DNA of 64,000 nt from Actinomycetota bacterium (GTDB lineage: Bacteria; Actinomycetota; Thermoleophilia; Solirubrobacterales; 70-9), in NCBI GenBank assembly GCA_046733275.1, contig JBKPOW010000052.1, positions 486 through 64,485 on the forward strand, written 5' to 3'. Below the pieces are notes generated by a model. The model was not told where the DNA came from and did not search any database. It saw only the letters and a program-made list of their open reading frames with translations. Below, piece after piece: positions 2,948 to 40,470 of the stretch (position 1 is its first letter; each line of letters opens with the position of its first letter). Position numbers and translations under genes: made by a program.

Positions 2948-3056
2948 GGGAAATCAAACCATCCCCTCATATCACCTCCATTTCAGGCACTAGTGCCTCG
3001 AATGACGCCGATGCGCGGCGATTAGCGGCGATTTCGCCCGGTCCCGCCTCGCTTTA
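2948..3056 (+). repeat. Repeat family copy A-R (GAAATCAAACC box + AGGCACTAGTGCCT palindrome + GCGATTAGCGGCGAT tail)
   Basis: Aligns by eye with 20166-20220, 23808-23910 and 40408-70, and its tail aligns with 28130-85. Confidence 0.6.
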
Positions 3057-3236
3057 GCCCGGCAGCGGAGCTACGGTCGCCGCGCCGACATAAGCAAAAG
3101 TGCCCCGGCGGCGGTGGAACGCCCCGGGGCCGGCACCGAAGCTCACACTTCGATGCACGAAAGACGGTACTCGCCGTCGCCCCTATCGGGGCAGCATCGT
3201 GGCCGGCTTCGGTGCCCTAACAAAAAGGGGGGCGCG

Positions 3237-3452
3237 ATGCCCAGCACCACCATCGAGATCAGCCGCGAGCAGCGTCAGCCACTTCACCGGCTGGTGACGC
3301 AGCACATCAGCGGGATCGGCGACGTCTATTTGATGATCGAGCGGGGTGACTTTGCCATCGCCGAGCGCTTCGGCCTGGAGTTCGGTGAAGACATCGGATG
3401 CTCAACGACCTTGGCTGGGACCCCGATAACGCTCGGGACTCCTACGCGCTGA
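3237..3452 (+). CDS. Small hypothetical protein, possibly the 5' part of a frameshifted gene continuing in 3398..3691
   Basis: The ATG follows aaaagggggg. The reading frame changes near 3395. No domain recognised. Confidence 0.35.
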   Translation: MPSTTIEISREQRQPLHRLVTQHISGIGDVYLMIERGDFAIAERFGLEFGEDIGCSTTLAGTPITLGTPTR

Positions 3453-3691
3453 CGCAGCCGCGCCACGAGCTGATCGAAGCGCTGAAGCGGCTGCGCCTGG
3501 ATGCCGAGGATGGCCTTGACGCGCCAGAGGACGAGAAACGCAAGCGGGAGGAGTACGACGAGCTGATCGCGTACTTCACGCGCGCCCGCGACCTCTGCGC
3601 CGAGCTGACCGACGCACTCGACACGAGGGTCGGCGAGGGCCCCGTGAGCCTGACGATTGACCGCGAGAGCGTGACTCGCTACAGGGCTTGA
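3398..3691 (+). CDS. Hypothetical acidic protein
   Basis: The peptide LNDLGWDP..YALTQPRHELIEALKRLRLDAE resembles the next gene (MQDLRWFD..FELTLPAEALASTLTRAREDA). The stop overlaps the next start. Confidence 0.45.
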   Translation: MLNDLGWDPDNARDSYALTQPRHELIEALKRLRLDAEDGLDAPEDEKRKREEYDELIAYFTRARDLCAELTDALDTRVGEGPVSLTIDRESVTRYRA

Positions 3692-4071
3692 TGGCCTATC
3701 GCTTCTTCACTGCTGGCGACTTGCGATTTCAGCGCTCCGTTGAGAGCGGCGTCACCCGCGAGGAACAGGTGCGCGAACTCGAACAGGACGCGCAGCTCAT
3801 GCAGGACCTGCGCTGGTTCGACAGGGGGCTGGCGGAAGCCCTCCGCATGCCCGAGGTCGACCAGGACCAGTTCGAGCTGACCCTGCCAGCCGAAGCTCTC
3901 GCCAGCACGCTGACGCGCGCCCGCGAAGACGCTCGCGTCGCCTTCGCTGACGGCCTGAAGCAGACCCCAACCGAAACCGACGAGGAGCGCCGAGCGCGTT
4001 TCCGGCTCGCCGAGCAGACCTGCGACGAGCTTCTGGCCCGCCTCGGCAACCAAGAGGAGGCATCAGCATGA
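3688..4071 (+). CDS. Hypothetical protein, paralog of 3398..3691
   Basis: ATGA-type overlaps at both ends (3688-3691 and 4068-4071). Protein-like composition. Confidence 0.5.
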   Translation: MMAYRFFTAGDLRFQRSVESGVTREEQVRELEQDAQLMQDLRWFDRGLAEALRMPEVDQDQFELTLPAEALASTLTRAREDARVAFADGLKQTPTETDEERRARFRLAEQTCDELLARLGNQEEASA

Positions 4072-4376
4072 GCACCAAAACGAAAGAGGCCGCAAGCCCC
4101 AAAGCGGCGTCGAGCAAAGCCAAGGCGGCAGGCGCGTCCAATGGCGGCGCCAAGCACAAGAAGCGTCTTCGCCCCGGCGAGTTGGACGGGCTTGTCCTCT
4201 CCTACATGTGCAAGCACGAAGGAGAGCTGCCGCTGACGGCCAGCGCGATCGGCAAAGGGATCAGAAATCCTCCGCGCCGTTGCCAACTGCCTCGCCCGGC
4301 TGCGAAAGCCAAAAAGGTCCGGCTGGCGAAAAAGACTCCCCGCGCGTACGACCTGAAAGGGGTCACCGCGCGGTGA
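4068..4376 (+). CDS. Lys/Ala-rich N-tail plus putative winged-helix DNA-binding protein
   Basis: KAASSKAKAAGASNGGAKHKKR followed by LRPGELDGLVLSYM..LTASAIGKGI..KKVRLAKKTPRAYDL. A more helix-like ILRAVANCLARL is readable in a shifted frame around 4258-4300, so the gene may be damaged. Confidence 0.45.
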   Translation: MSTKTKEAASPKAASSKAKAAGASNGGAKHKKRLRPGELDGLVLSYMCKHEGELPLTASAIGKGIRNPPRRCQLPRPAAKAKKVRLAKKTPRAYDLKGVTAR

Positions 4377-4479
4377 GGGGACGGGGAAGTAGGTCGAGGC
4401 ATCCAGGCCCGGGAACGGGCCCAGGCCACCTTGGTTGCCTCGGCCGAAACCCCGCCATCCCCCGAGAAGCTGGGCACTT

Positions 4480-4593
4480 CCATCTGCGATTGTTCGAGGG
4501 TCGGGGCGCAGGCCACAGGGAGGTGAGGTGGTTCCCGTCCTTGCTTGCGGGACCTCCGCCCACCTGCCTCGGCCCTCGAACAACCGCAGATGG
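4480..4593. repeat. Long inverted repeat (21-nt arms, 1 mismatch) enclosing a GC-rich inner hairpin
   Basis: CCATCTGCGATTGTTCGAGGG (4480-4500) pairs with CCCTCGAACAACCGCAGATGG (4573-4593). It lies in a non-coding gap. Confidence 0.7.
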
Positions 4594-8772: not shown

Positions 8773-9414
8773 GTGGCGAGGATCTACGAGGCAACCGTCG
8801 CCCGCGCCTTCTCAGCTTGGTACGGGCGCATGATGCGGCGCATCGACGAGCGCGGGCTGCGCGATGTCCGCCGCGCACTCATCGCCGAGGCCCACGGACG
8901 GGTTCTGGACATAGGCACCGGGACTGGGTCGAACCTGCCCCTGTTTCCAGAGGCAGTCGACCTTGTCCTCTCCGAGCCCAGTCCCAACATGTTGAGGGCT
9001 TTGCGCCCCCGGTTGAGCGAGGAGGGTCGAACCGATGTCGATCTCGTTCAGGCGGGGGCCGAAGATCTGCCTTTTGACGACGCCAGCTTCGATTGCGTTA
9101 CCGCCACATTGGTGATGTGCACGATGCCCGACCCTCGTGCGGGTCTCGAGGAGATCGCGCGCGTACTAAAGCCAGGAGGCGCTTTTCTTTTCTTGGAGCA
9201 CGTCCGCTCGACAAATCATCGTGTCGCCCGAACTCAGGATCGCCTTGAGCGGCCCTGGCGCTTCCTCGCTGACGGTTGTCACTGCAACCGCGACAGCCTC
9301 GCGACGATCGAAGCGTCGCCCTTGACCCTGCAACGAGTCCAGCACGGCCGCATGCCCCTCGCACCCAAATTCATGGATCCCCTGATCTATGGAAGGGCCG
9401 ACCTTGTCTGTTAG
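8773..9414 (+). CDS. Class I SAM-dependent methyltransferase
   Basis: VLDIGTGTGSNL (motif I) and LKPGGAFLFLEHV. Confidence 0.85.
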   Translation: MARIYEATVARAFSAWYGRMMRRIDERGLRDVRRALIAEAHGRVLDIGTGTGSNLPLFPEAVDLVLSEPSPNMLRALRPRLSEEGRTDVDLVQAGAEDLPFDDASFDCVTATLVMCTMPDPRAGLEEIARVLKPGGAFLFLEHVRSTNHRVARTQDRLERPWRFLADGCHCNRDSLATIEASPLTLQRVQHGRMPLAPKFMDPLIYGRADLVC

Positions 9415-10807
9415 CGCCAGCCCCGCCAAGGTTCCCTCGGGGGCAGGTCCGATTGAGTCCAACCTTGCGGCCGCGCTCCCTGCCCCGCCGGTCGTGCCCC
9501 TGCCCGCCTGGGCGCAGATCCTGCGCTTCGACCAGCGCCAGATCGAGTTCGTCTTCCGGGCCAAGCGCGAGCTTGGCGATGTCTTCGCGATGCGACCCGG
9601 CCTTCCTGATGGTCAGGTGGTTACTGGCCTGCCGGATGACGCCCGGTCTCTGTTCACGGCCAAGCCCGAGGACGCGCCCTCAACTTCGGCTGAGTCGCCG
9701 CTGGTGCCGATCCTCGGCCCCGACTCGGTGCTCACTGCCCTCGGAGATCGCCACATGCGCCAGCGAAAGCTGCTCCTGCCGCCCTTTCACGGCGAAGCAA
9801 TCGAGCGCTATACGGAGGCGATCGCCGCGGCAGCCGAGCGCGAGATCGACAGATGGCCGCTGAACCGCCCCTTCGCTCTGGCCCCGCGGATGCAGGCGAT
9901 AACTCTCGACGTGATCATGGCGGGGATCTTTGGAATCCAGGGACGGCCTCCAGCGGGGAGTACGGAGGCGAGGCTCCGCGCGGCCACCAAGCGATTTTTG
10001 GCAATGAGCACCTGGCCTGCCTACCGGCCCTTCGAACTGCTGAACCTGGGACGCCAGGCCCCGGTCGGCTTCAACAAGCTCGCGGTCTGGGTCGGTGAGC
10101 GCACCATTTATCCCCTAATTGCCAAACGTCGCCGCGACGCCGATCTCACCGAGCGCCGCGACATCCTTTCGCTGCTCTTACTGGCGCGCAACGAGGGGGG
10201 CGAGCCGCTCAGCGATTCCGAAATCCACTCGCAGCTCGTAACTCTCATCCTCGCTGGCCACGAGACCACTGCCAACTCTCTTGCTTGGGCTTGGGAGCGA
10301 CTTGTCCGCAATCCGGCCGCCCACGAGCGCCTGCTTGACGCCGTCCGGACTGAAACCGAAGCGGCTGAGGTGATCGAGCAGACGATCACCGAGGCGATGC
10401 GCTCGCGGCCGGTGGTACCGCTCACCGGCCGGCGGGTGGAAAAACCTTGGCGGCTCGGCTCCTACGCGATTCCCGCCAGCACCCCCGTATTCATCAGCAT
10501 CCTCCTCATCCATCATCAGGAGAGCCTCTATCCCGACCCCTTCGAGTTTTGCCCCGAGCGCTGGATCGACCGCAAGCCGGGCACCTACGAGTGGCTTCCT
10601 TTCGGTGGCGCCATTCGCCGCTGCCTTGGGGCAGCACTCGCGATGGCCGAGCAGCGGGTGGTACTCGAGGCGATGGCTCGCCGACTCGATCTCGTCGCTG
10701 CCGATCCCACCCCCGAGCATGCCGTACACCGCAACGTAACGATGATCCCGGCGCGCGGCGCGCGGGTAATCCTCCGGTCGCGGCGCCCCGTCGCCACCGT
10801 CTTCTAG
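9389..10807 (+). CDS. Cytochrome P450
   Basis: AGHETTA (I-helix), EAMR (ExxR) and FGGAIRRCLG (Cys-heme loop). Confidence 0.9.
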   Translation: MEGPTLSVSASPAKVPSGAGPIESNLAAALPAPPVVPLPAWAQILRFDQRQIEFVFRAKRELGDVFAMRPGLPDGQVVTGLPDDARSLFTAKPEDAPSTSAESPLVPILGPDSVLTALGDRHMRQRKLLLPPFHGEAIERYTEAIAAAAEREIDRWPLNRPFALAPRMQAITLDVIMAGIFGIQGRPPAGSTEARLRAATKRFLAMSTWPAYRPFELLNLGRQAPVGFNKLAVWVGERTIYPLIAKRRRDADLTERRDILSLLLLARNEGGEPLSDSEIHSQLVTLILAGHETTANSLAWAWERLVRNPAAHERLLDAVRTETEAAEVIEQTITEAMRSRPVVPLTGRRVEKPWRLGSYAIPASTPVFISILLIHHQESLYPDPFEFCPERWIDRKPGTYEWLPFGGAIRRCLGAALAMAEQRVVLEAMARRLDLVAADPTPEHAVHRNVTMIPARGARVILRSRRPVATVF

Positions 10808-10854
10808 CTGGAGGTTCTCGATTGAACGGAGGCAAGCAAATAGCAGCCAAGACA

Positions 10855-12288
10855 ATGTGGCGGAATGACACCAAAGTTGGCAGGGCGCGATTTCCGCAGC
10901 CAGCACCAGCCGATCTCACCGGAATCCCGCCGGGTCCGCGGCTGCCGCGGCACCTGCTCGGCGCCTACTGGCTGCTGCGCGAGCACCGACTGCTTGATCG
11001 GTGCCGGCGACGCTACGGCGATGTCTTTTCGTTGAAGATGTGGCCGCTCGGCCTGCTGGTCGTCATCGCCGAGCCGGCAGAGATCAAGCGGATCTTTACC
11101 GGCGACCCCGAAACCGTGCAGGCGGGCGAGGGCAATGCGGTCACCGAGCCCGTCGCCGGCCCAGAGTCTGTCCTGTTGCTTGACGGCAAGCGCCACCTGC
11201 ACACCCGCAAGCTGATGCTGCCGTCCTTCCACGGCGAGCGCATCCGCGTCTACGGCGACCTGATCGGCGAGATCGCCGAAGCGGAGATCGACCGCTGGCC
11301 GCTGGGCACACCGTTCCCGATCCACCCCTCGATGCAGACGATCACTCTGCGGGTGATCCTGCGAGCCGTCTTCGGCATCGAGGACATCGAGCGCCGCGCC
11401 GAGCTGGAACGGCTGATCCCGAAGCTGATCTCATCGCCCGCCCTGCTTTGGCCTCCATTGGGATACGACCTCGGGCGCCACAGTCCCTGGGGGCGTTTCC
11501 TCGCCCTGCGCGAACAGGTGGACGCGATCCTTTTCGACGAGGTCGAGCGGCGCCGAGCCGATCCGGCCTTGGAGCATCGAGAGGACGTCCTCTCGATGCT
11601 CCTGCTCGCCCGCGACGAGGAGGGCGAGGGGATGAGCGACAGCGAGTTGCGCGACCAGCTCGTCACTCTGCTGCTGGCGGGCCACGAGACGACGGCGACG
11701 GCGCTCGCCTGGGCTTTCGAGCGTCTGCTGCGAAATCCCGCCGCGCTCGGTCGGCTACGTGCCACCCTCGCCGAAGGGGATGAGTCTTATCTGGACTGTG
11801 TGGTCAAGGAGACCCTGCGCTCCCGTCCGATCATCCCTTACGCGATGCGCCGCCTCACGGCGCCAATGGAGATCGCCGGCCACACGGTCCCTGTCGGTGC
11901 CTTCATTGGCTGTTCGACGATCCTCACCCACAGTGACCCTGCTCTCTACCCCGATCCTGATGCCTTCCGTCCCGACCGCTTCGAGGACGGTGGCGCCGAC
12001 ACCTACACCTGGATTCCTTTCGGCGGCGGCGTGCGTCGCTGCCTCGGCGCCTCGTTCGCCACCTTTGAGATGAAGGTGATCCTGCGGCGGGTCCTGAGTC
12101 GCTGCGACCTTAGCGTGCCCGACACGAGGCCCGAGAGCCCGGTGCGGCGCTTCGTCACCTATCCGCCGAGCCGTGGCGCGCGCGTCGTTCTTCACGAGCG
12201 TCGACCGCGATCTTCGAGTGACCCTGGGGACCTTGTTGTCGCAAGTGCGCAAATGCGAAGTGACGAAGGGGAGGAGAGTCGAAAGTGA
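10855..12288 (+). CDS. Cytochrome P450 (second, in tandem)
   Basis: AGHETTA, ETLR and FGGGVRRCLG. The ATG at 10855 is internal to track ORF 10447..12288. Confidence 0.9.
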   Translation: MWRNDTKVGRARFPQPAPADLTGIPPGPRLPRHLLGAYWLLREHRLLDRCRRRYGDVFSLKMWPLGLLVVIAEPAEIKRIFTGDPETVQAGEGNAVTEPVAGPESVLLLDGKRHLHTRKLMLPSFHGERIRVYGDLIGEIAEAEIDRWPLGTPFPIHPSMQTITLRVILRAVFGIEDIERRAELERLIPKLISSPALLWPPLGYDLGRHSPWGRFLALREQVDAILFDEVERRRADPALEHREDVLSMLLLARDEEGEGMSDSELRDQLVTLLLAGHETTATALAWAFERLLRNPAALGRLRATLAEGDESYLDCVVKETLRSRPIIPYAMRRLTAPMEIAGHTVPVGAFIGCSTILTHSDPALYPDPDAFRPDRFEDGGADTYTWIPFGGGVRRCLGASFATFEMKVILRRVLSRCDLSVPDTRPESPVRRFVTYPPSRGARVVLHERRPRSSSDPGDLVVASAQMRSDEGEESRK

Positions 12289-13378: not shown

Positions 13379-13801
13379 ATGTGGCGCTGCGAGTACGCGA
13401 CCTGGCAGCGCTACACCGATGTCGCCCTGCCGATGATGGTCGGCGGGTTGGAGGCGCTGCTCGGCCTCGGCCGCAGCGACACGTCGCGGCGCTTCAAGAA
13501 CCGCCTCGCAGCGATGGCGAGCGAGCTTGGCATCGACGGGGTCGACGGCGACCTGCTCGACCGCATGTACGAGGGTCGGTCGGCGTGGGTCCACGGCTCC
13601 CCGGTGCGCCTCTTCGACCCGGCCGCCGATCCCGAGCGCGAACCCGACGCCCAGCCCGACGCGGCGATGGAGGCGGTCCTCGCCGAAATCGTGAGGCTGC
13701 AAGACACCCTCCGGGCAGCTCTGCGTATGGCGATCGAGGCCCCCGAGTTCCGGGCCGTCTTCGCGAGCGAGGCGTCGATCGCCGAGCGGTGGGGCGGGTA
13801 G
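13379..13801 (+). CDS. Hypothetical protein with possible HEPN-like Rx4H motif; possibly N-terminally truncated
   Basis: YEGRSAWVHGS. No upstream ribosome-binding site, and the frame is open upstream of the start without another start codon. Confidence 0.35.
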   Translation: MWRCEYATWQRYTDVALPMMVGGLEALLGLGRSDTSRRFKNRLAAMASELGIDGVDGDLLDRMYEGRSAWVHGSPVRLFDPAADPEREPDAQPDAAMEAVLAEIVRLQDTLRAALRMAIEAPEFRAVFASEASIAERWGG

Positions 13802-13816
13802 GCGTGCGTGGCTGGT

Positions 13817-13890
13817 GTAATCACCGCCACCTCGGATTTCGGGCACTCGTCCGCGCGAGTGCCCGAATCGCTGCATATCCACGCACCGGG
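13817..13890 (+). repeat. Repeat family copy L1 (hairpin GGGCACTCG-n6-CGAGTGCCC followed by GAATCGCTGCATATC)
   Basis: Hairpin at 13841-13864. Aligns with 19896-19980 and 23545-23630. Confidence 0.6.
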
Positions 13891-13912
13891 CCGAGCTTCG
13901 ATGCCTCCTGAT

Positions 13913-15922: not shown

Positions 15923-15960
15923 TGGCCCTCCTCCGCTGGTCTGGTCGGCCTTGATCAACT

Positions 15961-28185: not shown

Positions 28186-28590
28186 TAAGTTTGCCGGCGC
28201 CAAGACATAAGTGCCCCTGGCGGCGCGCTAACGCCCCGGGGCCTGGCCACGAAGCACCTTCTGTCGGTAAGCGATCCCTTCGACGCCCTGGACTCGGAGC
28301 GCGCGACCTGAGTGTCTCCAATCAGGCCCTACGTCTTCCCGCCCCGCAAGCCGAAAGCCAAAGGCCCGCCACCGGAGCCGATCCTCCGGGGCACTCCGGC
28401 GGGACGGGCCCTCACCGACTCATTCGACCCGACCGCGGATCTCTGCGTCGACGTTGTGATCGGCGAGCCGGTCGACGGCCTCAACAACAGCGGCTGACGG
28501 GCACGCGCCTGTAGAGCGGGCCACGTCCCTGCGTCGGTCGATTGCCCTGGCCAGCGCCGTCAGCGCGATCGCGGGCTCCTGAGAGCTCTC

Positions 28591-28619: not shown

Positions 28620-28744
28620 CCCCCGCAGCACGAGAAACACGGATGTCCGCGTTTCTCGTGACCACAGGGAACAGGATCAAAAGAGCCATGGGGCCGCCCA
28701 GGGAAGCGGCAGGCAGGGGCTCTAGCGGACAAGGAGAGAGATAC

Positions 28745-31700: not shown

Positions 31701-32302
31701 TCCGCTATGACGACCGGACCGAGAGCTTGGAGTGCGTGTCGTGTCAGGAGTTCAGCCACGGGCTCGGCGGAGATTCTGGCGGCGGGGTGTTCGAGGACAT
31801 CGTGGTCTCAGACGACGGCGATACGGTCGCCTTCTCCACGGGGGCGGCGCTCTCTCCGCGCGACATCAACCAGGAGATCGATGCCTATGAGTGGCACAAC
31901 GGCGTCGTGCGCCTGGTCACCGACGGAGTGCACGAGTGGCCGCACAATATTTACGGCGGCACGCCGCTGGTGTGGGGGATCTCGTCCAGCGGCAGAGATC
32001 TCTTCTTCTCGGCGGGCGGCGCCCGGCTCACCGGAGAAGAGCATGACTATTACGCGAATGTCTACGACGCGAGAATCGGCGGCGGCTTCTCTCAACCGGC
32101 CCCGCCGGCCCACTGCGCGGAGGACGCCTGCCAGGGCCCCCTGAGGCCGAGCCCTGCGCTCGACATCCAGGGCAGCTCCAATTTCCATGGTGCCGACACG
32201 CGGAAGGCCGCGCGGGCGCACCGGAAGAAGCGCCGGCACAAACGCCGACACAACCACCGGCGAGCACATAGCAAGCGGTCGGAGGGTCGTCGCCGTGGTT
32301 GA
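28745..32302 (+). CDS. Giant secreted protein: signal peptide, NHL-type beta-propeller repeats, FN3-like FEYG domains, PD40/TolB-like propeller, polybasic tail
   Basis: The GTG follows AAGGAGAGAG. NNRVQIFSKSGEF (NHL), YVFEYRPDG..GLAPNTTYHARL and YYFQYGTDTSYG..TADTTYHY (FN3-like), DGSRVLWG/DVYLWK/DGDVALF (PD40-like), ending KKRRHKRRHNHRRAHSKRSEGRRRG. Confidence 0.8.
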   Translation: MRRHAPLAGTTGEKSARFPCVTVAFRFFAATVFALLLLSPAASAQRGTVQIIDTGGSVASVAVDDASGDLYVASGANIKVYDASGAFQFEFGEPASDLAIDQVSHNVYALESGKQRVAKYDAAGNFLFYFGWNVNLTEVGSAPEICPRDGFPGDVCQEGEPRRDPGAIGYPRDPKIGNDFSIAAAGIAVGPGGAVFISEPGAIEIDISENVTRGNNRVQIFSKSGEFSSTFSLPFDPNCDPQVFECIQTSNHEPDQIAVDSQGVIYTTPVSSGETADPRFPGCSLVANFQVCVVKRFTSSGTQLADFAPSRVFPKLFDIAADLSNGDIYVYQASSKEARQYEIAVYSNQGSFLEDVALGLPPDGSGLAVRAGTSRAYTSDGTNRVFVLDTIALLPEATMDSVADITSGGATFHGTANPRTSEIETGYVFEYRPDGEDDWTRVSSSDVPIGTGTDPVPVTQEVSGLAPNTTYHARLTVARELGAGAARSNEISFTTDAEIPTVSRLGASRITDTGALLGARIDPRHAATSYYFQYGTDTSYGRTAPVAGNGDAGAGLGEVAVFERIEGLTADTTYHYCLVAENFVGQAPCEDHTFGTTTTAAQDWSARGLELVNEPDKGNQSALYPAGTFDNQRIISPDGSRVLWGTTSGTPDSTGGNAPSFVSRRTPSGWQTTPFAPTVDQQPDGFAGRLTYRLVAASTELDQFIAVASEGPGSIAESLPNYLARVKSPSEQEELAPVTYGSSFEYSEELVASADLSRAVHSRFLIGFEVGPDITIATPDCGGGTRAGPPMLSAGGAPSPMGSAANPVTHDYAFLYSASDSGCGELPELYATDFATNTPTLISGPALGAQRGASLIGTKPSGEEALFVSRSQLVAEDADSGNDVYLWKASGGPPSCLSCDVAGFNPSENRHIAKASRDFSHVYYLGADGATYVLRTETHELHLVSLGKTLVTDERTRITPDGDVALFRSVDAGTADENPRKRGLLFRYDDRTESLECVSCQEFSHGLGGDSGGGVFEDIVVSDDGDTVAFSTGAALSPRDINQEIDAYEWHNGVVRLVTDGVHEWPHNIYGGTPLVWGISSSGRDLFFSAGGARLTGEEHDYYANVYDARIGGGFSQPAPPAHCAEDACQGPLRPSPALDIQGSSNFHGADTRKAARAHRKKRRHKRRHNHRRAHSKRSEGRRRG

Positions 32303-32333
32303 GCCGAGAAAGAACGAGGGGAACGAGGCAATA

Positions 32334-35300
32334 ATGACCTGCAAGGATCAAAGCCAGCGCCTACGTAAGGCGGTCGGCATAGCCCTTCTCTCTTTGGCCG
32401 CCCTGCTGATGATGGCCGGCTCGGCGTCCGCGGCAGTCGAATGGGAAGTGAACGCTCAGTGGGGTGACACCGTGCTGCGCCCCGGCGGCACCGGCGAGTT
32501 CATGCTCCGCGTCAAGAACGTCGGCACCACCGATGCCAGCGGGGCGGTGACCTTGAAGGAGCATCTGCCGCCAGGAGTGACGATGACGGGCTTCGCCACC
32601 CGAGGCCTGGCGTGGCAGTGCTTTGGGACGCAGACCGTCACCTGCGCCACGAACCTGCTGGATTCCCTCGGCAATCCGACCGGAACGGCGATGAGCACCA
32701 CCATGGAGACTTCGCATTACCTACCTCAGCTCTTCATCGAAGTCGCAGCAAGCCCGGATGCCTCCGGCACCAAGCTCAACACGGTGACGGTATCCGGAGG
32801 GGGAGGGGCGGTCGCCTCGACCAGCATGCCGGTCAGCTTCGGCGACCAGCCGACCGACTACGGCATCCTCCCGCACAGCTTCTCGCCCGCCGACGTCTAT
32901 GACACACGTTCACCGGGCCTCGGCCGCGAGCGGCAGGCCGCCACCCATCCCGAGGAGCTGAGGGTGAGGTTCGACATGAATCTGGTGCACGATTTCAATA
33001 TCAAAGGGGAATCGTTCACCGAACCGGCCGGACGTCTCCGAACCGCGGAGGTGTCGTTGCCGCGAGGCCTGGTCGGCAACCCCGAGGCGCTGCCCAAGTG
33101 CGCGACCAGCGACTTTCTGCAGGAAGGACTGAGTCCGTTCACCGCGACGGGCTGTCCCTCCAATACCCAGGTCGGCTATATCGACCTGGAGCTCAACCTC
33201 AGCGCGACGGAACATGGCTACGGAATCTTCAGTGGCGCCGGAAACGCCTTTTCCCGCATAGCCATATACAACCTCGTCGCGCCGAAGGGCACGCCGGTGG
33301 ACCTCGGCTTCCGCGCCGGTGGCTTCGTCTACGGGCATATCTACGCGCAACTGGACCCGACGAGGGACTATGCGATCAAGTCGATTTCCCCCGATATCAG
33401 CACGGGCGCGCCGGTGCGCGGGGCGCGGGTTACGATCTGGGGTGTTCCGGGGGACCCGGCGCATGACCTCTACAGGGCGGTCCCACCGGTCAACTTCACC
33501 CCAGGCGGAGCGGCTATCCATGACCGCGATCCCTACGGCGCCGCCTTCACCAACGCGCCGGTCAGGCCGTTTCTGACGATGCCCTCCGATTGCGGCACGG
33601 ACAACGGCCCCTTCCTGATGCGGGCAGACTCCTGGGCGGCAAAAGGGGAGTTCACGCCGCTGCTCGAGGGCGAAGAGCGCGTCAACGTGGAAGGTTGCGA
33701 TGACCCACGCATCCGCTTCGAACCGGAAGTCTCGATCCAGCCGACGACTAGGGACGCGAGCCAGCCGACCGGCCTCGACATCCATTTGGAGACCCCGCAG
33801 CGAGACCAGACGATCGGAGGTCCAGAGCAGGCCGGCAAGCTCTATGACCAAAGCGGCAACCTGCACGCGATCGACACCCCGCCGATCAAGAAAGTGGTCG
33901 TGCGCATGCCCGAGGGGATGACGCTCTCCGCCTCAGCGGCCCAGGGCCTCACCGCCTGCAGCGCGGCCCAGATGGGCATCGGCAACAACGACCCGGTCAC
34001 CTGCCCGGATGCCTCCCAGTACGGGACCTTGACCCTGCACACCCCCGTGCTGCCACCCGATGAACCGATGAAGGGCTTCATCTACATCGCCAAGCAGAAG
34101 GAAAACCCCTTCAACGACTTCTTGGCGATGTACTTCGTGATCGAGGACTCCGAGCGCGGCCTGCGTATCAAGATTCCCGGCCGCGTCCAGCTCGATCCGG
34201 TAACGGGGCAGATCACGACCACCTTCGACGACCTGCCCCAGTTCCCGCTCTCCGACGTGCAGCTGACCTTCAAGTCGGGAGTCAGAGCGGCGCTCGTCAA
34301 CCCGGCCACCTGCGGCAAAAAGACGATCTCGGCCACCTTCTACTCCTGGGCCGAACCAGACAACCCGATCCCCAGCGACACCGACTACTCGGTGACCCAG
34401 AAGGCAGACGGCTCGCCCTGCTTCAACAACCTCGCCGAGCGCCCCTTCAAGGCGCAGATGTCGGCGGGGATGGTCAACCCCAACGCCGCCTCTTATAGCC
34501 CCTTCGTCTTCCGCATGACGCGCTCGGACGACGATCAGGAGCTGTCGCAGATCGGCGTCTCGATGCCGGCCGGGCTGACCTCGAAGCTGGCCGGGATAAC
34601 CCGCTGCTCCGAGGAGGCGATAGCGGCGGCCTCGAACCCGCTTCGCACGGGCACCGAAGAGGCAAGCTTCCCATCCTGTCCCGCCTCGAGCCAGGTGGGC
34701 ACTACCGAGGTCGGCTCAGGTGTCGGGGTTCCCCTCACCTTCGTCCCCGGCAAGGTCTACCTGGGCGGACCCTACAAAGGCGCGCCCCTGTCATTGGTCG
34801 TCATAACCCCGATCCTCGCCGGCCCCTATGACCTCGGCGTGATCGCGGTCAGAAGCGCGATCTCCCTCGATCCCAAGACCACTGCGGTAAGCGTTCTCAC
34901 CGATCCCTTCCCGCAGATCTTTCAGGGCATCCCGGTACGTCTCAGAGACATTCGCGTGCGGATCGATCGCAAGGACATGATGCGGAACCCGACCAACTGC
35001 GATGTCAAGCAAATCCACGCGCATCTAACCGGGGCCGGAGGAGAGGTCAATACCACCGCCGATGACACAGCGGCAGATCTCTATGAACGCTTCCAGGTCG
35101 CCAACTGCGCGGCGCTTCGCTTCAAGCCGAAGCTCAGCTTCCGCCTCAAGGGGGGTACGAAGCGAAACGACCATCCCGCCTTCACCGCGACCCTTACCGC
35201 AAAGGACGGCGAAGCCAACATCGCCAGAGCCGCGGTCACCCTGCCCCACTCGGTCTTCTTGGATCAGTCCCACATAAGGACGGTCTGCACCAGGGTGCAG

Positions 35301-35756
35301 TACGCAGCAGACCAGTGCCCGCAAGGAGCGGTCTACGGCCGCGTCAGGGCCTGGACCCCGCTGCTTGACGAAACCCTGGAAGGACCCGTTTACATGCGTT
35401 CATCAAGCCATCAGCTGCCCGACGTGGTCGCGACTCTGAACGGCATCCTCGACGTTGAACTCGTCGGCCGCATCGATTCGGTCAAGGGCTCCCTGCGCAC
35501 CACCTTCGACTTCGTCCCAGACCAGCCGGTGAGCAGGTTCGTACTTTCAATGCCGGGAGGAGGGAAGGGCCTCCTGGTCAACTCGACCAATACGTGCAAG
35601 TCAACCAACCGGGTCAAAGTCCTGCTCGACGGGCAAAACGGCAAGACCGCCGATCAGTTCCCCAAGCTGCGGAACGGCTGTGCCAAGGAGACACGGCGGG
35701 CAAAGGCGCGAGGGGCCAGGCGAGCAGAGCGCAAGAGCGGGAGGACGGGCCGATGA
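32334..35756 (+). CDS. Giant secreted protein: signal peptide, DUF11/CARDB-like N-domain, repeated roughly 200-aa Cys-pair modules, basic tail
   Basis: The ATG follows gaggggaacgagg. Signal peptide LLMMAGSASA. GTGEFMLRVKNVGTTDASGAVTLKEHLPPGV. A recurring LP.G..(C)..CP..SQVG..P.L..P..G.VY pattern occurs at least 3 times. Confidence 0.8.
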   Translation: MTCKDQSQRLRKAVGIALLSLAALLMMAGSASAAVEWEVNAQWGDTVLRPGGTGEFMLRVKNVGTTDASGAVTLKEHLPPGVTMTGFATRGLAWQCFGTQTVTCATNLLDSLGNPTGTAMSTTMETSHYLPQLFIEVAASPDASGTKLNTVTVSGGGGAVASTSMPVSFGDQPTDYGILPHSFSPADVYDTRSPGLGRERQAATHPEELRVRFDMNLVHDFNIKGESFTEPAGRLRTAEVSLPRGLVGNPEALPKCATSDFLQEGLSPFTATGCPSNTQVGYIDLELNLSATEHGYGIFSGAGNAFSRIAIYNLVAPKGTPVDLGFRAGGFVYGHIYAQLDPTRDYAIKSISPDISTGAPVRGARVTIWGVPGDPAHDLYRAVPPVNFTPGGAAIHDRDPYGAAFTNAPVRPFLTMPSDCGTDNGPFLMRADSWAAKGEFTPLLEGEERVNVEGCDDPRIRFEPEVSIQPTTRDASQPTGLDIHLETPQRDQTIGGPEQAGKLYDQSGNLHAIDTPPIKKVVVRMPEGMTLSASAAQGLTACSAAQMGIGNNDPVTCPDASQYGTLTLHTPVLPPDEPMKGFIYIAKQKENPFNDFLAMYFVIEDSERGLRIKIPGRVQLDPVTGQITTTFDDLPQFPLSDVQLTFKSGVRAALVNPATCGKKTISATFYSWAEPDNPIPSDTDYSVTQKADGSPCFNNLAERPFKAQMSAGMVNPNAASYSPFVFRMTRSDDDQELSQIGVSMPAGLTSKLAGITRCSEEAIAAASNPLRTGTEEASFPSCPASSQVGTTEVGSGVGVPLTFVPGKVYLGGPYKGAPLSLVVITPILAGPYDLGVIAVRSAISLDPKTTAVSVLTDPFPQIFQGIPVRLRDIRVRIDRKDMMRNPTNCDVKQIHAHLTGAGGEVNTTADDTAADLYERFQVANCAALRFKPKLSFRLKGGTKRNDHPAFTATLTAKDGEANIARAAVTLPHSVFLDQSHIRTVCTRVQYAADQCPQGAVYGRVRAWTPLLDETLEGPVYMRSSSHQLPDVVATLNGILDVELVGRIDSVKGSLRTTFDFVPDQPVSRFVLSMPGGGKGLLVNSTNTCKSTNRVKVLLDGQNGKTADQFPKLRNGCAKETRRAKARGARRAERKSGRTGR

Positions 35757-38218
35757 AGACCGTCAAGGCAGGGTTCGCCACCGCGATAGCCGCCGCGGCG
35801 CTGCTCTCGGCGATCGCCGTCCCCGGTGCGGACGCAGAAGTGCTCTACCAGAAGACCGACCTGCTGGTGCCGACGAATGCTTATTTCCCGAGCGGCATGG
35901 ACATCGACCACTCGACTGGTGATCTTTATGTGGCGGGGGTTCACCAAGGCCTTCACCGCTTCAGTCCCGATCGGGTCGAAACCACCTACGGGCCCGCAAT
36001 CGACTTCAAGTCGGTAGCGGCGGCGCCGGAGCATAAGTCCTTCGGGCTGACCGCGAAAACGACCAGGATGATTGCGTTGGACGCCTCAGGCAACCAGACT
36101 GCCTCCTTCGGCGTAGGTGGCTCGCCCGGCGATATCGGCACCGATGCCGCCGGCAACGTCTTCGTGCCCGCCCCGGCCGCCATAACCAACGAGCAGCAGA
36201 CGCTGACGATCAGCGCGACCGGCGGCACCTACACGCTCAGCTTCGAAGGGCAGAGCACGGGCACGATGTCATTCGATGCCAGCGCGGAAGAAATTCAAAC
36301 TGCCCTGGAAGGGCTCTCGCCGATCGGCGCCGGCAACGTCGAAGTCAGCGGCAGGACCATCACCTTCCAAGGCGTGCTCGCTGGCATCGACGTACCCGAG
36401 CTCACCGCCGACACTTTGCTCTTGACCGGCGGCTCGCTGAAAGTCGAAACGACCGTGATCGGCTCGACCTATCCCCTCGCGGGCGTGCGCGAGTTCAGCC
36501 CCACCGGCACCCTGAAGCAGGTGATTGACTGCAGCGCCTGCCCCGCGCCGGCTGAATTCAGCAAACCCGCGGCGGTCGACTTCGACGCAGACGGCAACAT
36601 GTATGTGGCAGATTCCGGTGGAGCGCGCGTGATCAAGTTCGTCGCATCGGCCGGCGATCCGACCGATTACACCTCTGTGCCGCCGGAGGTCTTCAGCACG
36701 GGCGCCTCGGTAGCTGTAGCGGTGGACCGCTCCAACGGCGATGTCTTCATCGGTGGAGACGACGGCAGTGGCTATCACGTCACCGGATACCACTCCGATG
36801 GAGTCAAGTTCACCGATTTCGGTCTTGGTGAGCTCGACAACCTGGGCGAACTGGCCGGCGAATTCTTTGGCATGTTGCCCGACCAGCTCGCGGTCGATCC
36901 GCAGACCGGCCACGTCCATGTCGATGACATCAACTTCAGTGGGGAAAGCCGTATCTGGGAGTATGCCCCCGTTCTCGCTCCAACCGAGAGCCCTCTACCG
37001 GCAAGTGGCATCACCCAGGACACTGCCACCCTCAACGCCACGGTCAACCCAATGGGCGACACGGTCATCGCCTGCCACTTTGAATATGGCCTCGACACGA
37101 GCTACGGCCAAAGCACCGAGTGCGCCGACTACCCGGGCTTTGGCACCGACCCGGTCGGGGTAAGCGCCGACATTGGTGGCCTGGCCCCAAACACCACCTA
37201 CCACTACCGAGTGGTGGCCACCAACGCGGCGGGCACGAGCGAAAGCACAGATGAAGAATTCACGACCCTGGTAGAGAAGCCGATCGTCTCGACTGGATCC
37301 GCCTCCGCGATCAGCGCAACCGCAGCGACGATCTCAGGCTCGGTAGATCCCAAAGGCAGCGCGACCAGCACCTGCCATTTCGAATACGGCACCACCACCG
37401 CCTATGGCAGTCAGGCCCCCTGTCCCACCGACCCCGGAGAAGGCCAGGGAGCCGTAGGGGAGTCCCTCCCCGTCAGTGGCCTGGCCCCCAACACCACCTA
37501 TCACTACCGCCTGGTGGCTGAGAACCCAGGCGGGACTTCCCGGGGGGCCGACGGCTCCTTCAAGACCCTGCCCAGGGCACCGGGCACGAGCACCGGATCG
37601 GCCTCTGACCTGACCCCGACCACCGCAAAGGTCGCAGGCTCGATCGATCCTCAGGGGGTGCAGGCCTCCTACCGCTTCGAATACGGCACGACTCCGTCCT
37701 ATGGTCAAAGCAGCCCCGCGGGCGGTGCCGGCGGCCAAGGAGCGCAAGCGGTGGCGGTTTCCCTGGCATCGCTCAAACCCTCGACCACGTACCACTATCG
37801 CCTCATTTCAAGCAACGCGGGCGGCGCTACCCAAGGTGCCGATCGGACATTCACCACTCAAGCACGCCCCAAGGGCAGGTTGATATTGCCCGCCACTGCG
37901 GTGCTCAGAGGCAAAAAGGCGGCGGTCCCGCTCGAGTGCAGAGGCGCCAAGATTGCTATCTGCGAAGGCACCCTGACCCTGCGCGCCAGGGTGAAACAGG
38001 GAATTCGCTTGACCTTGGTCCAGATCGGTCAGGCGGCTTTCCAGGTCGACGGCGATGAGACCAAAGCGGTCTCGGTCACCCTCAACGGCAACGGCAGGAA
38101 AGCCCTTGCCGGCACAGACGGAAAAGCGCTTAGAGCAATCGCTTCTGCCGACGGCCACAACCGCGAAGTGCGCATTTCCCCGCGCGCAAAACGCAGCAAG
38201 CATGCGAAGAAGCGCTAG
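35753..38218 (+). CDS. Secreted NHL-repeat plus 3x FN3-like (HFEYG..APNTTYHYR) protein, basic tail
   Basis: ATGA overlap with the previous gene. Signal peptide AAALLSAIAVPGADA. There are three tandem domains of about 95 aa, ending PRAKRSKHAKKR. Confidence 0.8.
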   Translation: MKTVKAGFATAIAAAALLSAIAVPGADAEVLYQKTDLLVPTNAYFPSGMDIDHSTGDLYVAGVHQGLHRFSPDRVETTYGPAIDFKSVAAAPEHKSFGLTAKTTRMIALDASGNQTASFGVGGSPGDIGTDAAGNVFVPAPAAITNEQQTLTISATGGTYTLSFEGQSTGTMSFDASAEEIQTALEGLSPIGAGNVEVSGRTITFQGVLAGIDVPELTADTLLLTGGSLKVETTVIGSTYPLAGVREFSPTGTLKQVIDCSACPAPAEFSKPAAVDFDADGNMYVADSGGARVIKFVASAGDPTDYTSVPPEVFSTGASVAVAVDRSNGDVFIGGDDGSGYHVTGYHSDGVKFTDFGLGELDNLGELAGEFFGMLPDQLAVDPQTGHVHVDDINFSGESRIWEYAPVLAPTESPLPASGITQDTATLNATVNPMGDTVIACHFEYGLDTSYGQSTECADYPGFGTDPVGVSADIGGLAPNTTYHYRVVATNAAGTSESTDEEFTTLVEKPIVSTGSASAISATAATISGSVDPKGSATSTCHFEYGTTTAYGSQAPCPTDPGEGQGAVGESLPVSGLAPNTTYHYRLVAENPGGTSRGADGSFKTLPRAPGTSTGSASDLTPTTAKVAGSIDPQGVQASYRFEYGTTPSYGQSSPAGGAGGQGAQAVAVSLASLKPSTTYHYRLISSNAGGATQGADRTFTTQARPKGRLILPATAVLRGKKAAVPLECRGAKIAICEGTLTLRARVKQGIRLTLVQIGQAAFQVDGDETKAVSVTLNGNGRKALAGTDGKALRAIASADGHNREVRISPRAKRSKHAKKR

Positions 38219-38981
38219 GGCTCTTTCCCTGGCCGCTGCGCTGGCGATCGCCGTGGTGGCGATTGCCGGCGCCGAGGTGGGCCAGCAAGGCAACCTGCGG
38301 GTCGCCTTCGAAGGCAAGATCACCCCCCACGCCCTGCCGAGGAACAAAGAGGTGCCGGTCGCGGTCTCCTTCAGTGGCCGCATCACCACCACCGACAACA
38401 GCGAACCTCCGCCGCTTCGAACAATCCGCCTGGCGATCAACAGAAACGGCCACATCGACTACAAGGGCCTGCCCAAATGCCGCTACAACCGCATTCAGCC
38501 CTCGAACAACCACGAGGCGCTCGAGGCCTGTCGTTCCTCCTTCGTCGGCATGGGGCACTTCTCGGCCAAGGTGCTGTTGCCAGAACAATCCCCCTTCCCC
38601 TCGGAGGGCAAGGTCTTGGCCTTCAACGGCGAAATGCTCCAGCACCCGGTCATCTTCGCCCACATCTATGGCACCAGGCCGGTGGCCACGTCCTTTGTGC
38701 TCCCCTTCGTCGTCCGTCATTCAAATGGGCGCTACGCCACCACCCTCGTTGCCTACCTGCCCAAAGTGGGCGTTAAATGGGGCTTCGTCACCGCTGTCAG
38801 CTTGAAGCTGCAGCGCACCTTCGAGCTGAACGGCCGCACCCATAGCTACCTCTCCGCTGCTTGCAGCGCTCCCGATGGCTTTCCCGGCGCCATCTTCTCC
38901 TTCGCCAAAGCCGAATTCGCCTTCGCCGAAAACCGGACCGTATCGACGCCTTTGACCCGCAGCTGCAAGGTGCGGGACTGA
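38202..38981 (+). CDS. Secreted 259-aa protein homologous to the Cys-pair module of the 32334..35756 product
   Basis: 17-nt overlap with the previous gene. Signal peptide LAAALAIAVVAIAGA. LRVAFEGKITPHALPR..LPKCRYNRIQ..ACRSSFVGMG..EGKVLAFNG. Confidence 0.7.
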   Translation: MRRSARALSLAAALAIAVVAIAGAEVGQQGNLRVAFEGKITPHALPRNKEVPVAVSFSGRITTTDNSEPPPLRTIRLAINRNGHIDYKGLPKCRYNRIQPSNNHEALEACRSSFVGMGHFSAKVLLPEQSPFPSEGKVLAFNGEMLQHPVIFAHIYGTRPVATSFVLPFVVRHSNGRYATTLVAYLPKVGVKWGFVTAVSLKLQRTFELNGRTHSYLSAACSAPDGFPGAIFSFAKAEFAFAENRTVSTPLTRSCKVRD

Positions 38982-38999
38982 GACTGGCGGCTTAGGACG

Positions 39000-39745
39000 G
39001 CGCTAAGACCAGCTCGGGCGGATTCCGCCTGAGTGAATCGCTGGGCATACGCCGTCGGACGATTCCCCGGGGGTCTCGCCGCTCGTGTCTGGGTAGGTTG
39101 TCTCCATGTCCGGCGAAGCGCGTTGCGAGTCGAGACTGAAGCGTCCCTCACCGCCATCGTTGCCGAGCGTGTCTACGCGGGCGTTGAGCTCGCCGACGTG
39201 TTGGCGGCCGCGGGCACAGCGGAGGCAGGCTTCTCACCACGTCGGCCGCCTTGACGGTGGGGAATGCCCGTGAGGCCAAAAACAGGCGAGTGATCGTCGA
39301 GCATGTTGAGGATCTCCGCGCGTCCTCCTGTGGCGGGGGCCAGTGGGTGACGTCGGCCTGCCACATCTCGTTGGGCAGCTCGGCTTCAAAGCGAAGGAGC
39401 GAGGAGCGCGGGCGCTGCGCTCGGCCAGGTGGTAGGCGATCGTCGCCGCTCCGCAGTCGTGGCCTTCCTTGCTCAGCTGTCTGCGCAGGGCGACGATCGC
39501 ATCGGCGAGCTCGGCAGAGGTCCCGTTCGACGAGCTGCGCGGCGCCCTGGAGCGGCGCTCCAGGGCGCCATACCCGCCCGCCCTGTAGCGGGCCAGGAGC
39601 TTGTAGATCCAGCTGCGATGGACTCCGTGCGCCGCCGCCAGCTCGCTGACTGGGCGGCCCTCAACAGATGCGCCTCCACCAGATACCGCGCCTTGTCCCA
39701 CAGGAGAGCTCCCCTCATTGGAGATCCTCCCCCCGTAATTCCTGA
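39000..39745 (-). mobile_element. IS481-family transposase remnant (N-terminal HTH through the DDE core), with multiple frameshifts and a deletion
   Basis: GRPVSELAAAHGVHRSWIYKLLARYRAGGYGALERRSRAP, FEAELPNEMWQADVTHW and EILNMLDDHS, spread over three frames. Confidence 0.7.
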
Positions 39746-39759
39746 GATTCAGATGGAGA

Positions 39760-40330
39760 GGCCGAGCGCAGCGAGGCCGCCGCAGAATCCCTGGAAGCAC
39801 AGAGAGCCGGCGCCGAGCGCGATGCTCGCCGGGCCGTGGCGCGCGGGCTGGTGGCCGCGCTCGACGCAAAGATCAGAACCGCCCTGATGGCCCACCCGGA
39901 CGCCGAAGTCTTCGCTCCCCTGTTCCGCAGCGCCAAGACGACGATCTGCCCGGCGACTCTGATCGCTGAGATCGGTGACCGCAGGGGCCGCTACCCCACC
40001 GAGGCCGCGCTGGCGGCCGACGCAGGAATGAGCCCGGTCGCGCTGGAGTCGGGGAAGATGCGCGTCGCGACCTTCAGGCGCGCCTGCGACAAGCGGCTGC
40101 GAAAAGCCGTCACAGTCCTCGCCGACTCCACCCGCCACTGGCATCCGTGGGCCAAGGACGTCTACGAGCGAGCCCGGGCCAGAGGCTAGGACCATCCGCA
40201 CGCGACCCGCACCCTGGGGCGCGCCTGGATCAGGGTTCTGTGGCGCTGCTGGCAGGACGGAGTGCCCTACCTCCCGTCCTTGCACGGGAACCTGGGATTC
40301 GGTGTCTCCTATGTCCTGACACAGGTGTCG
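39760..40330 (+). pseudogene. IS110-family (DEDD) transposase, C-terminal half only, with an in-frame TAG at 40187
   Basis: TLIAEIGDRRGRYPTEAALAADAGMSPVALESGK..RRACDKRLRKAV..WAKDVYERARARG*DHPHATRTLGRAWIRVLWRCWQDGVPY. Confidence 0.75.
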
Positions 40331-40351
40331 CTTATGTGGTGGAAACCGGAC

Positions 40352-40470
40352 ACCATCAGCCGCTTCGCTTCGAATCCCCTGCACTTCGGCGGGTTGGCCC
40401 TCCGGGAGGAAATCAACCATCCTGTCGCCTCCATTTTGGGCATTAGTGCCCGAAATGACGCGGATGCCAC
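40352..40470 (+). repeat. Module D: last 12 nt of the tRNA-like core, spacer, R-type box with GGGCATTAGTGCCC palindrome
   Basis: CCATCAGCCGCTTCGCTTCGAATCCCCTGCAC aligns with 23748-23780. Palindrome at 40438-51. Confidence 0.6.

Follow-up and report, generated by a model that had tools for sequence, protein, structure and literature searches.

The attachment sites (attP) of lambda, mycobacteriophage L5 and pSAM2 consist of a core between arms of 100-250 bp that carry short repeated motifs in a fixed orientation; in lambda-type systems the integrase gene adjoins attP, and the arm-binding domain of the lambda enzyme is N-terminal. Elements related to ICESt1 and ICESt3 of Streptococcus thermophilus, members of the integrative and conjugative elements (ICEs), undergo tandem accretion at the 3′ end of a gene and decay there to cis-mobilizable elements (CIMEs) (PMC5704250). 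The subject here is a 64,000-nucleotide (nt) stretch of contig JBKPOW010000052.1 from an Actinomycetota genome (Thermoleophilia; Solirubrobacterales), hereafter the window, in which two types of palindrome-bearing repeat, L and R, accompany a tRNA-Gly(GCC) gene and partial copies of it. The L and R repeats are most probably the P and P′ arms of the attachment site of integrative elements that target the 3′ 43 nt of tRNA-Gly(GCC) in Solirubrobacterales, and the 37-kb accessory region of the window would be explained as a decayed tandem array of islands at this one tRNA gene.

The arrangement shares with lambda-type attP sites a core between motif-bearing arms and, in relatives, an integrase gene beside the site; here, however, each arm carries a long palindrome of the same half-sites, and the extra DNA-binding-like domain of the candidate integrase (Mrr_N) is C-terminal. 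It resembles ICE/CIME accretion in that successive 3′-end integration leaves repeated attachment (att) sites between islands, islands devoid of integration and transfer genes retain both end sites (attL and attR), and arrays combine decayed with functional elements (PMC5704250). In contrast to those arrays, the host belongs to the Actinomycetota (Thermoleophilia), the target is tRNA-Gly(GCC), the likely integrase has a C-terminal Mrr_N domain, and integrase-less units, down to ~1 kb and presumably mobilizable, are very common. The ssrA-specific islands of Dehalococcoides are reported to make similar use of a single small-RNA gene as a hot spot, with many islands of varied cargo and an integration module in only some of them, adjoining the integration site, although the target there is the transfer-messenger RNA rather than tRNA-Gly (PMC3146451). 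The general mechanism, comprising tRNA integration, accretion and non-autonomous derivatives, is already well known; what is new is the group of hosts, this specific att site, an integrase whose Mrr_N domain is C-terminal, and how abundant very small integrase-less units are. An att site, with its core and both arms, and a likely integrase are thereby defined for a mobile-element family widespread in Solirubrobacterales, an abundant, poorly studied soil order for which a full-text literature search with integrase or tRNA-Gly returned nothing relevant among the matches listed. The arm motifs also provide a simple marker for island boundaries, for cargo (defence, toxin-antitoxin, P450) and for horizontal transfer.

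L and R repeats around tRNA-Gly cores

The repeat family in the window comprises three confirmed copies of L, four of R and one tail fragment of R, all on the + strand (Table 1). The motif GGCAYT-N0-20-ARTGCC occurs at six sites (2986, 13842, 19923, 23573, 23851 and 40439), compared with 0.15 expected by chance, and a seventh hairpin of the family, at 20203, is cut in its centre. Similarity among the copies was significant by self-BLAST (E from 2e-67 to 1e-5): junction 19898-20213 is 79% identical to 23548-23857 (E 2e-67), 2854-2994 matches 20073-20215 (E 7e-22), L copy 13823-13886 matches 23554-23617 (E 2e-15), and R sequence 2949-3014 matches 40408-40467 (E 1e-5). A covariance model built from 42 L copies and scanned against the whole window with filters off recovered the three L copies at 78-111 bits, together with the long R palindrome at 23847 and, weakly, R copy 1. 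Matches of the model on the - strand are merely palindromes read in reverse, and nothing credible was recovered past 40.5 kb in the window.

These repeats had been noticed in an earlier sequence-only reading, and inspection of each copy found the sequences as described and where they had been placed; the model likewise agreed that all copies are on the + strand, with none past 40.5 kb. The earlier count of about eight copies holds for the three L copies, the four R copies and the R tail, but a further L copy proposed at 27588-27641 was not recovered even at E ≤ 10, and the L-type list, sound for 13817, 19896 and 23545, had overlooked a degenerate copy at 24944-25043. The palindrome reported at 23847-74 is indeed perfect, but its 28 nt fall short of the actual 32-mer (Table 1), and the R block extends at least to 3142, beyond its earlier end.

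The tRNA-Gly gene and its repeated 3′ fragments, absent from the sequence-only reading, are the key to the structure. The island DNA is bounded by an intact tRNA and, at its far end, by a directly repeated copy of the 3′ part of that tRNA, and the core within the tRNA-Gly gene, 2855-2897, is the left junction of the array. Each R copy begins 50-55 nt past tRNA-Gly or a core copy, and about 115 nt separate L copies 19896 and 23545 from the core that follows each of them; L copy 13817 and the R tail at 28130 have lost their core and stand as orphans. Because R is always placed after a core and L before one wherever the core survives, L-core-R is read as an attP-type site and the window, therefore, as a tandem array of islands. 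The first junction consists of core and R only, since the 5′ half of the tRNA and a glyoxalase gene stand to its left. As in CIMEs, the att junctions are kept (2855-3142, 19880-20213 and 23530-23920), and the scanned island ORFs gave no integration or transfer genes. The T-stem variant of the core copy at 23719-23760 is an allele of intact tRNA-Gly genes in other species.

To place the repeats among relatives, species-representative genomes were scanned once with the L palindrome (TCGGGCACT-N4-16-AGTGCCCGAAT). The exact pattern was matched at 46 loci (loci of relatives are numbered below with an L and three digits), about 33 of them in Solirubrobacterales or Thermoleophilia, with one to three loci per representative genome. 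Family loci have a 10-nt spacer, the box upstream and a GCATATC-rich tail downstream. In 24 of 30 oriented copies, a tRNA-Gly 3′ fragment stands at +126 to +139, and in all but one of these at +136 to +139; ARAGORN found no intact tRNA there, marking a fragment and not a gene, and five loci have an intact tRNA-Gly of the same orientation 3.4-5.3 kb upstream. Element-specific arms flank the tRNA-Gly core on both sides in the window and in about 30 Solirubrobacterales genomes, and these cores, together with a complete element on chromosome OY968825.1 (described below), bear out the earlier suggestion that the copies are P and P′ arms of related integrative elements.

Arrays of at least two units were found at L003, L006, L016, L021, L031, L035 and L045, and the smallest units are ~0.8 kb (e.g., L031 1664-2483). 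L018 and L032 each contain a single integrase-less island, with tRNA-R on the left, L-core on the right and unrelated DNA, terminator-like in L032, past the last core; such ends indicate that strands are exchanged within the tRNA core and not in the palindromes. Hairpins like the one at 2901-2928 follow tRNA-Gly or terminal cores in L013, L014, L020, L024, L032, L039, L042, L044 and L051. Flank synteny and DNA identity of 87-93% place the window in a Solirubrobacterales-like genome, and in L047 and L048 the flank synteny is kept with no recognisable L or R arms. Scans of viral contigs with the L and R patterns gave no match, so there is no evidence of phage origin. All-against-all clustering of open reading frames (ORFs) from 30 loci showed variable cargo and no protein that recurs beside L copies. 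Two proteins were considered as possible novel recombinases, one of 763 amino acids (aa) in L018 and one of 358 aa in L049; both lack a Pfam domain on record, and neither recurs beside arms.

A candidate integrase and a complete element

A profile from a Xer-like gene was used as bait over all ORFs of the loci and gave three tyrosine recombinases, confirmed by Pfam. The recombinase of L015 (542-553 aa) has a Phage_integrase domain and a C-terminal Mrr_N (winged-helix) domain, hence Int-Mrr_N, with candidate catalytic R, K, H-x-x-R, H and Y residues seen by eye. Its gene starts ~330 nt past an L-core junction, and the interval contains an R-type arm (R*) composed of a GTTCGAACCA box, ~20 nt and then GTTTTTGGGCACTGGTGCCCGAAAA; gene callers placed no gene in this L-core-R* interval. 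An Int-Mrr_N gene ~330-400 nt past a core and R-type arm was found in L011, L015/L050, L051 (L051/L052) and L055, where the R* palindrome is altered to GTTTCAGGCACGAGTGCCTGAAA with its symmetry kept. In L054 the gene lies ~3 kb past the intact tRNA-Gly and arm, with an insertion sequence (IS) between arm and gene. The integrase thus stands inside the element and beside the att site at all of these loci, but not in the window. Int-Mrr_N homologs number 1398 proteins at E ≤ 1e-10, with identity to the query of 60% or more in each of the best 120, and the family is apparently centred on Solirubrobacterales.

Loci L055 and L041 overlap on chromosome OY968825.1 and together make up a complete element of ~14.9 kb, in the order tRNA-Gly, R* arm, integrase, AbiE, KAP NTPase, SAVED/JAB/ThiF cargo, L arm and 43-nt core; both of its core copies carry a host-specific GAGTCC variant. 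A different element of ~7 kb occupies the same tRNA-Gly at L051 2487-9668, encodes a 409-aa integrase, Replic_Relax, a Peptidase_M78 regulator and DUF4411, and has neither L nor R arms; the arms therefore go with the Int-Mrr_N family and not with the target.

The window itself contains no such gene: Pfam searches of 50 window ORFs, including all large ones, found no recombinase domain outside IS remnants, those of them within islands gave no match to domains of integrases, relaxases or transfer systems, and tblastn with the Int-Mrr_N integrase of relatives found no match in the window. A 295-aa Xer-like recombinase was rejected as the dedicated enzyme because it has the same synteny in the armless L047 and L048, is highly conserved and carries the canonical XerC/D C-terminal motif; it is probably a housekeeping protein. 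In relatives, its gene lies beside a sigma-factor gene ~5 kb upstream of tRNA-Gly (L047 5251-6138, L048 5039-5926, L049 5048-5935 and L054 1662-2549), a position that corresponds to just upstream of the window's start.

In the proposed mechanism, the attP of the free element would have its 43-nt core ~115 nt past the L arm and ~50-90 nt ahead of the R arm. Once the element had integrated into the tRNA gene, the R arm would directly follow the reconstituted tRNA, and the L arm would lie at the opposite end of the element together with the displaced tRNA 3′ end; further rounds of integration into the restored gene would then generate an array of the form tRNA-R...L-core-R...L-core-R... Later decay would have deleted junctions at ~13.9 and 25.0 kb and allowed IS entry at 20.2, 27.6-28.1 and 39.2-40.35 kb. 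The islands of the window would be non-autonomous, like cis-mobilizable elements, with the ~545-aa Int-Mrr_N as the likely enzyme, presumably acting on them in trans. The GAAATCAAACC box, the GCATATC repeats and the GGGCAC...GTGCCC palindrome are putative protein-binding sites, which may assemble the recombination complex or control genes reading inward from each end, and the box is plausibly an arm-type integrase site. The palindrome stands at a similar distance on each side of the core, and the Mrr_N domain possibly reads it; a C-terminal Mrr_N domain combined with palindromes in both arms offers a testable idea on how such integrases assemble their complexes.

Several observations weigh against this account. 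The 64-kb window has no integrase, and activity on its copies is thus a prediction, as are excision and a circular form. Native chromosome is what one would expect past the oldest core, but the last R copy (40408) stands there, which requires either another decayed element at that place or homology of the arm to the native flank. L053 and L056 contain close homologs of the integrase (72-84% identical) at the end of a conjugation-type module, made up of AAA_10, TrbL, CHAP and Replic_Relax in the former and of Replic_Relax and a methylase in the latter; L, R and core were all absent within 10 kb, and the link between integrase and arms is therefore not universal. The palindrome is gone from the R copies L003_860, L045_11 and L011_36 of relatives, so it is dispensable for the persistence of an integrated island. 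Finally, since many copies share a common origin, independence is overstated in the shuffle statistics given below.

Palindrome symmetry and competing explanations

The L and R arms follow a common plan of a box (GAAATSAAACC), a linker of 13 nt in L and about 24 nt in R, and a palindrome with half-sites GGGCAC/GTGCCC, T-rich on one flank and A-rich on the other. The spacing between half-sites is 2 nt in most R copies and 12 nt in L and in R copy 3 of the window, a difference of 10 nt. Two GCATATC motifs lie past the palindrome in the L consensus and one ahead of it in R, and five of the six GCATATC sites in the window fall in repeat copies. In the 42 L copies, whose alignment was partly ascertained by a search pattern that fixes the outer stem, 89.8% of cells are paired and seven pairs show double changes; the covariation score was reached in none of 500 shuffles, and slid controls were 22-51% paired. 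In the 18 R and R* copies, a set chosen for intact palindromes, pairing is 96.6%, with double changes at four pairs. The stem covariation that the sequence-only reading had proposed to look for is thus present, and from these alignments the symmetry appears to be kept through compensatory changes, under selection.

The form in which the palindromes would act is less clear-cut. Symmetry in L extends through the central dinucleotide, which seems to fit a duplex palindrome better than a hairpin loop; at R pair 45-70 there are five cases of T.G and none of C.A, a hint of pairing within one strand, and the two patterns would point in opposite directions, duplex versus single strand. Predicted single-strand stems range from -10 to -16 kcal/mol in all copies but R1, with z-scores from -4.8 (L copy 13799-13908, -15.9 kcal/mol) to -8.2 (R copy 3, -14.8 kcal/mol). 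At the palindromes the order is T-run, stem, A-run, with no T-run past the stem on either strand, and promoter and terminator scans gave nothing at the repeat copies; the stems are therefore unlike intrinsic terminators, whereas the hairpin at 2901-2928 does fit one. The L palindrome was also considered as a dif-like or lox-like exchange site and rejected, given that the end junctions put the exchange in the tRNA core and that the R palindrome has no spacer.

That the hairpins are RNA or transcription signals and not recombination sites seems rather unlikely. They would serve as terminators or insulators, or as operators or 5′ untranslated-region structures for the inward genes (hicB-like, DUF433 and int), with the flanking conservation representing promoter sequence. 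Palindromes do lie ~80-290 nt upstream of hicB-like (from L, on the - strand), DUF433 (from R) and int (from the int-proximal R) genes, their predicted hairpins are stable, and T.G is tolerated on the + strand; however, terminators are contradicted by the flank order and the empty scan, the L copies 13817 and 19896 retain the palindrome with no hicB-like gene, and symmetry across the central dinucleotide is needless for a hairpin loop. No Rfam family matched, and loosening the thresholds at the junctions and the IS110 fragment brought up only noise. This explanation would in any case cover the hairpin alone and is compatible with the copies being att arms. The sequence-only reading had also proposed non-coding ends of an IS110/IS1111-type element encoding a bridge (guide) RNA, to which R copy 4, ~220 nt past the Transposase_20 fragment at 39836-40189, lends its only local association. 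We give this almost no credence, since the other copies have no IS110 gene nearby, and the fragment is nested in another IS remnant whose flanks, including the 100 nt before R copy 4, are contiguous in the IS110-free L050. Moreover, the family is kept at tRNA-Gly cores in about 30 genomes, with no IS110-type transposase among the called genes of annotated loci, and Rfam 15, whose content of bridge-RNA models was not checked, gave no match at gathering score or at E ≤ 1. Equally hard to credit are miniature inverted-repeat transposable elements (MITEs) or dispersed repetitive extragenic palindromic (REP)-like repeats: the copies are short, palindrome-bearing, multi-copy and non-coding, but they have no terminal inverted repeats or target duplications, keep a single orientation and a fixed spacing to the tRNA-Gly core, number only one to three exact-pattern loci per representative genome, and are absent from the 23 kb of core genome past 40.5 kb, a distribution that contradicts the even dispersal expected of REP-like elements.

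A comparison with integrons leads to two related proposals. The palindromes resemble integron attC sites in being imperfect, in keeping symmetry over sequence and in lying between the cassettes of an array, but there is no IntI-type integrase and no attI here, and exchange would fall in the tRNA core between the palindromes. It is quite unlikely, though conceivable, that exchange at tRNA-Gly is integron-like, with integrase-less cassettes bearing ~330-500 bp of L-core-R moved in trans by Int-Mrr_N, whose Mrr_N domain would read the paired palindromes in place of a lambda-type N-terminal arm-binding domain. The broader proposal that the tRNA-Gly locus is a dedicated gene-capture platform, integron-like in function, where a resident or visiting Int-Mrr_N shuffles integrase-less cassettes and the palindromes are structured recognition elements, is very doubtful. 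It gains from cassettes as small as 0.8-1.2 kb (L031 1664-2483; window 23759 to ~25040), from cargo rich in toxin-antitoxin and defence genes, from arms strongly conserved in integrase-less units of many species, and from the compensatory changes and the R pair 45-70 pattern noted above. Yet the cassettes are multi-gene, with cargo genes in both orientations and regulators of their own, units reach 17 kb, and the first junction lacks L just as the last junctions of L018 and L032 lack R. Nor is any integrase fixed beside the locus: none lies between the window start and the tRNA, and the sole upstream recombinase in relatives is the 295-aa Xer-like gene, which armless genomes have as well. All of these features are also accounted for by integrative elements that accrete and decay in the ordinary way (PMC5704250).

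Decay, cargo and neighbouring genes

Table 1. Positions in the window of tRNA-Gly, predicted arms and cores, and associated remnants.
Feature	Position	Strand	Basis and details
Intact tRNA-Gly(GCC), putative integration target	2822-2895	+	ARAGORN; Rfam tRNA 71 bits
Predicted recombination core	2855-2897	+	Last ~43 nt of tRNA-Gly, anticodon loop to 3′ end plus TT
Terminator-like hairpin	2901-2928	+	GAAAGCCCGCT-ctac-AGCGGGCTTTC, then T-rich tail; self inverted repeat
R copy 1 (predicted P′ arm, island nearest tRNA)	2948-3142	+	81% identical to L049 11417-11881; box GAAATCAAACC 2950-2960; imperfect palindrome around GGCACTAGTGCC 2986-2997; tail GATTAGCGGCGATTTCG... to 3142
Orphan L copy (predicted P arm)	13799-13908	+	Palindrome 13836-13869; covariance model 78 bits, E 2.5e-20
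L copy (predicted P arm)	19880-19990	+	Box GGAATCAAACC 19896-19906; palindrome 19920-19949; covariance model 92 bits
Core copy, 3′ 43 nt of tRNA-Gly	20074-20115	+	Identical to intact gene
R copy 2	20166-20213	+	Palindrome interrupted at centre, after GGGCACTAGT; identical junction in L050 ~1295
IS remnant, rve-type transposase (IS481-like)	20214-20646	+	74% identical to L050 1181-1706
HicB-like (UPF0150) antitoxin gene, frameshifted	23273-23493	-	tblastn in two frames; Pfam of L050 homolog
L copy (predicted P arm)	23530-23639	+	Box GAAATGAAACC 23546-23556; palindrome 23570-23599; covariance model 111 bits
Core copy	23719-23760	+	T-stem variant GTGGG/CCCAT
R copy 3	23808-23920	+	Long palindrome form, perfect 32-mer 23846-23877; then DUF433 region 23969-24199
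Possible degenerate L copy	24944-25043	+	TGTCGGGAGCTTCTGGCGAGAAGTTCTCGAAT; covariance model 16.3 bits, E ~0.012
Transposase remnant (rve_3)	27641-28096	-	Pfam; tblastn to L050 transposase
R tail fragment	28130-28255	+	78% identical to 3018-3142, E 4e-18 (self-BLAST)
Nested IS debris	39234-40352	.	Pfam; L050 match
HTH_29/32 transposase remnant	39234-39869	-	Pfam
IS110-type Transposase_20 fragment, 117 aa	39836-40189	+	Pfam
Core remnant, 13 nt	40353-40366	+	CCATCAGCCGCTT; repeat-family analysis
R copy 4	40408-40470	+	Box GAAATCAACCA; palindrome TTTTGGGCATTAGTGCCCGAAA; fold -9.7 kcal/mol, z -6.5

Several junctions of the array have been eroded (Table 1). The orphan L copy has no core after it and so marks a decayed junction inside the first 17-kb block, and the degenerate L copy at ~24985 marks a small cassette that starts from R copy 3 and holds the DUF433 region and a DUF4145 gene. 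The IS remnant next to R copy 2 matches residues 1-104 of the L050 rve transposase by tblastn; its end joins the R copy at 20213/20214, the CTAG centre of the palindrome, as it does at ~1295 in L050, which would reflect either a preference of the IS for the palindrome or inheritance of the junction. The rve_3 remnant took the place of the L-core-R-left part of a junction of which the R tail remains, marking a further decayed junction inside the third block. Through the nested debris the array lost its last L arm and all but 13 nt of its last core: 39236-39719 and 40297-40397 match L050 566-1225 at 85-89%, with the IS110 piece between them, and R copy 4 follows the IS110 remnant because that fragment is nested in the IS debris that hit the last core.

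The islands carry helix-turn-helix and TetR regulators, three P450s, an RPE65-type oxygenase, a SnoaL-like protein, a set of PspC, histidine kinase and response regulator, DUF4145, a PIN toxin and three giant surface proteins with fn3/NHL domains. Parts of this cargo recur in other genomes. The HicB-like gene lies directly left of the L copy at 23530, within a right-end module of ~520 nt (23245-23764, HicB-like gene plus L arm) that is 83-90% identical to 11 loci; in 11 loci such a gene adjoins one subfamily of L arms on their left. L010, L031 and L050, each representing a different GTDB species, encode 74-aa HicB-like products of 100% identity. Collinearity with an island of L049 was seen for the window's first island, from 2896 to ~6400. 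The PIN-toxin cassette (25752-26465) is 84% identical to L025 3487-4199, where it starts just past an L-core junction with no R arm, and to L002 679-1432. The between-species distribution of these island modules, and the T-stem allele of other species in the core at 23719-23760, would be indirect signs of mobility.

Several further observations concern the integrase genes and the HicB-like gene in relatives. The Int-Mrr_N genes span L050 10001-11629, L055 10001-11674 and L051 10001-11650 (~545 aa), and a second, degenerate tRNA-Gly 3′ half (…GCAGTAGGTCATGGGTTCGAATTT…) lies between the R* palindrome and the int start codon (L051 9850-9890, L055 9773-9810 and L011 7350-7390). The HicB-like gene of L050 is at 9159-9383 on the - strand, and in L021 a 75-aa ORF that overlaps the hicB-like stop may encode a partner toxin.

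Among the cargo genes, the P450 genes lie at 9389-10807, 10447-12288 and 20726-22159, and the P450 DNA at 9515-10784 is 71% identical to 22006-20734 on the opposite strand. In the region 28643-38218, three ORFs, of 1219, 1189 and 874 aa, encode repeats of the fn3, NHL and purple-acid-phosphatase-N-like types, and near 37.1-37.7 kb the DNA itself repeats with a period of 300 nt; a 1912-aa fn3/ricin-lectin protein is encoded near the integrase homolog of L053. Further palindromes of 28-32 nt, perfect or nearly so and unrelated in sequence to those of L and R, occur at 11571-11602, 20522-20549 and 39541-39569, one within a P450 gene and two within IS remnants.

Paralogous glyoxalase/VOC genes (2221-2778 and 40513-41547) stand just upstream of tRNA-Gly and tRNA-Cys, respectively, and are 72% identical over 2607-2656 versus 41448-41497, which hints at an old duplication of a gene-plus-tRNA unit. 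In L047, toxin-antitoxin pairs (HicAB and TacAT) lie between tRNA-Cys and tRNA-Val (15435-19073), so the tRNA-Gly/Cys/Val cluster looks like an insertion hot spot; in L048, merely ~280 nt separate tRNA-Cys and tRNA-Val.

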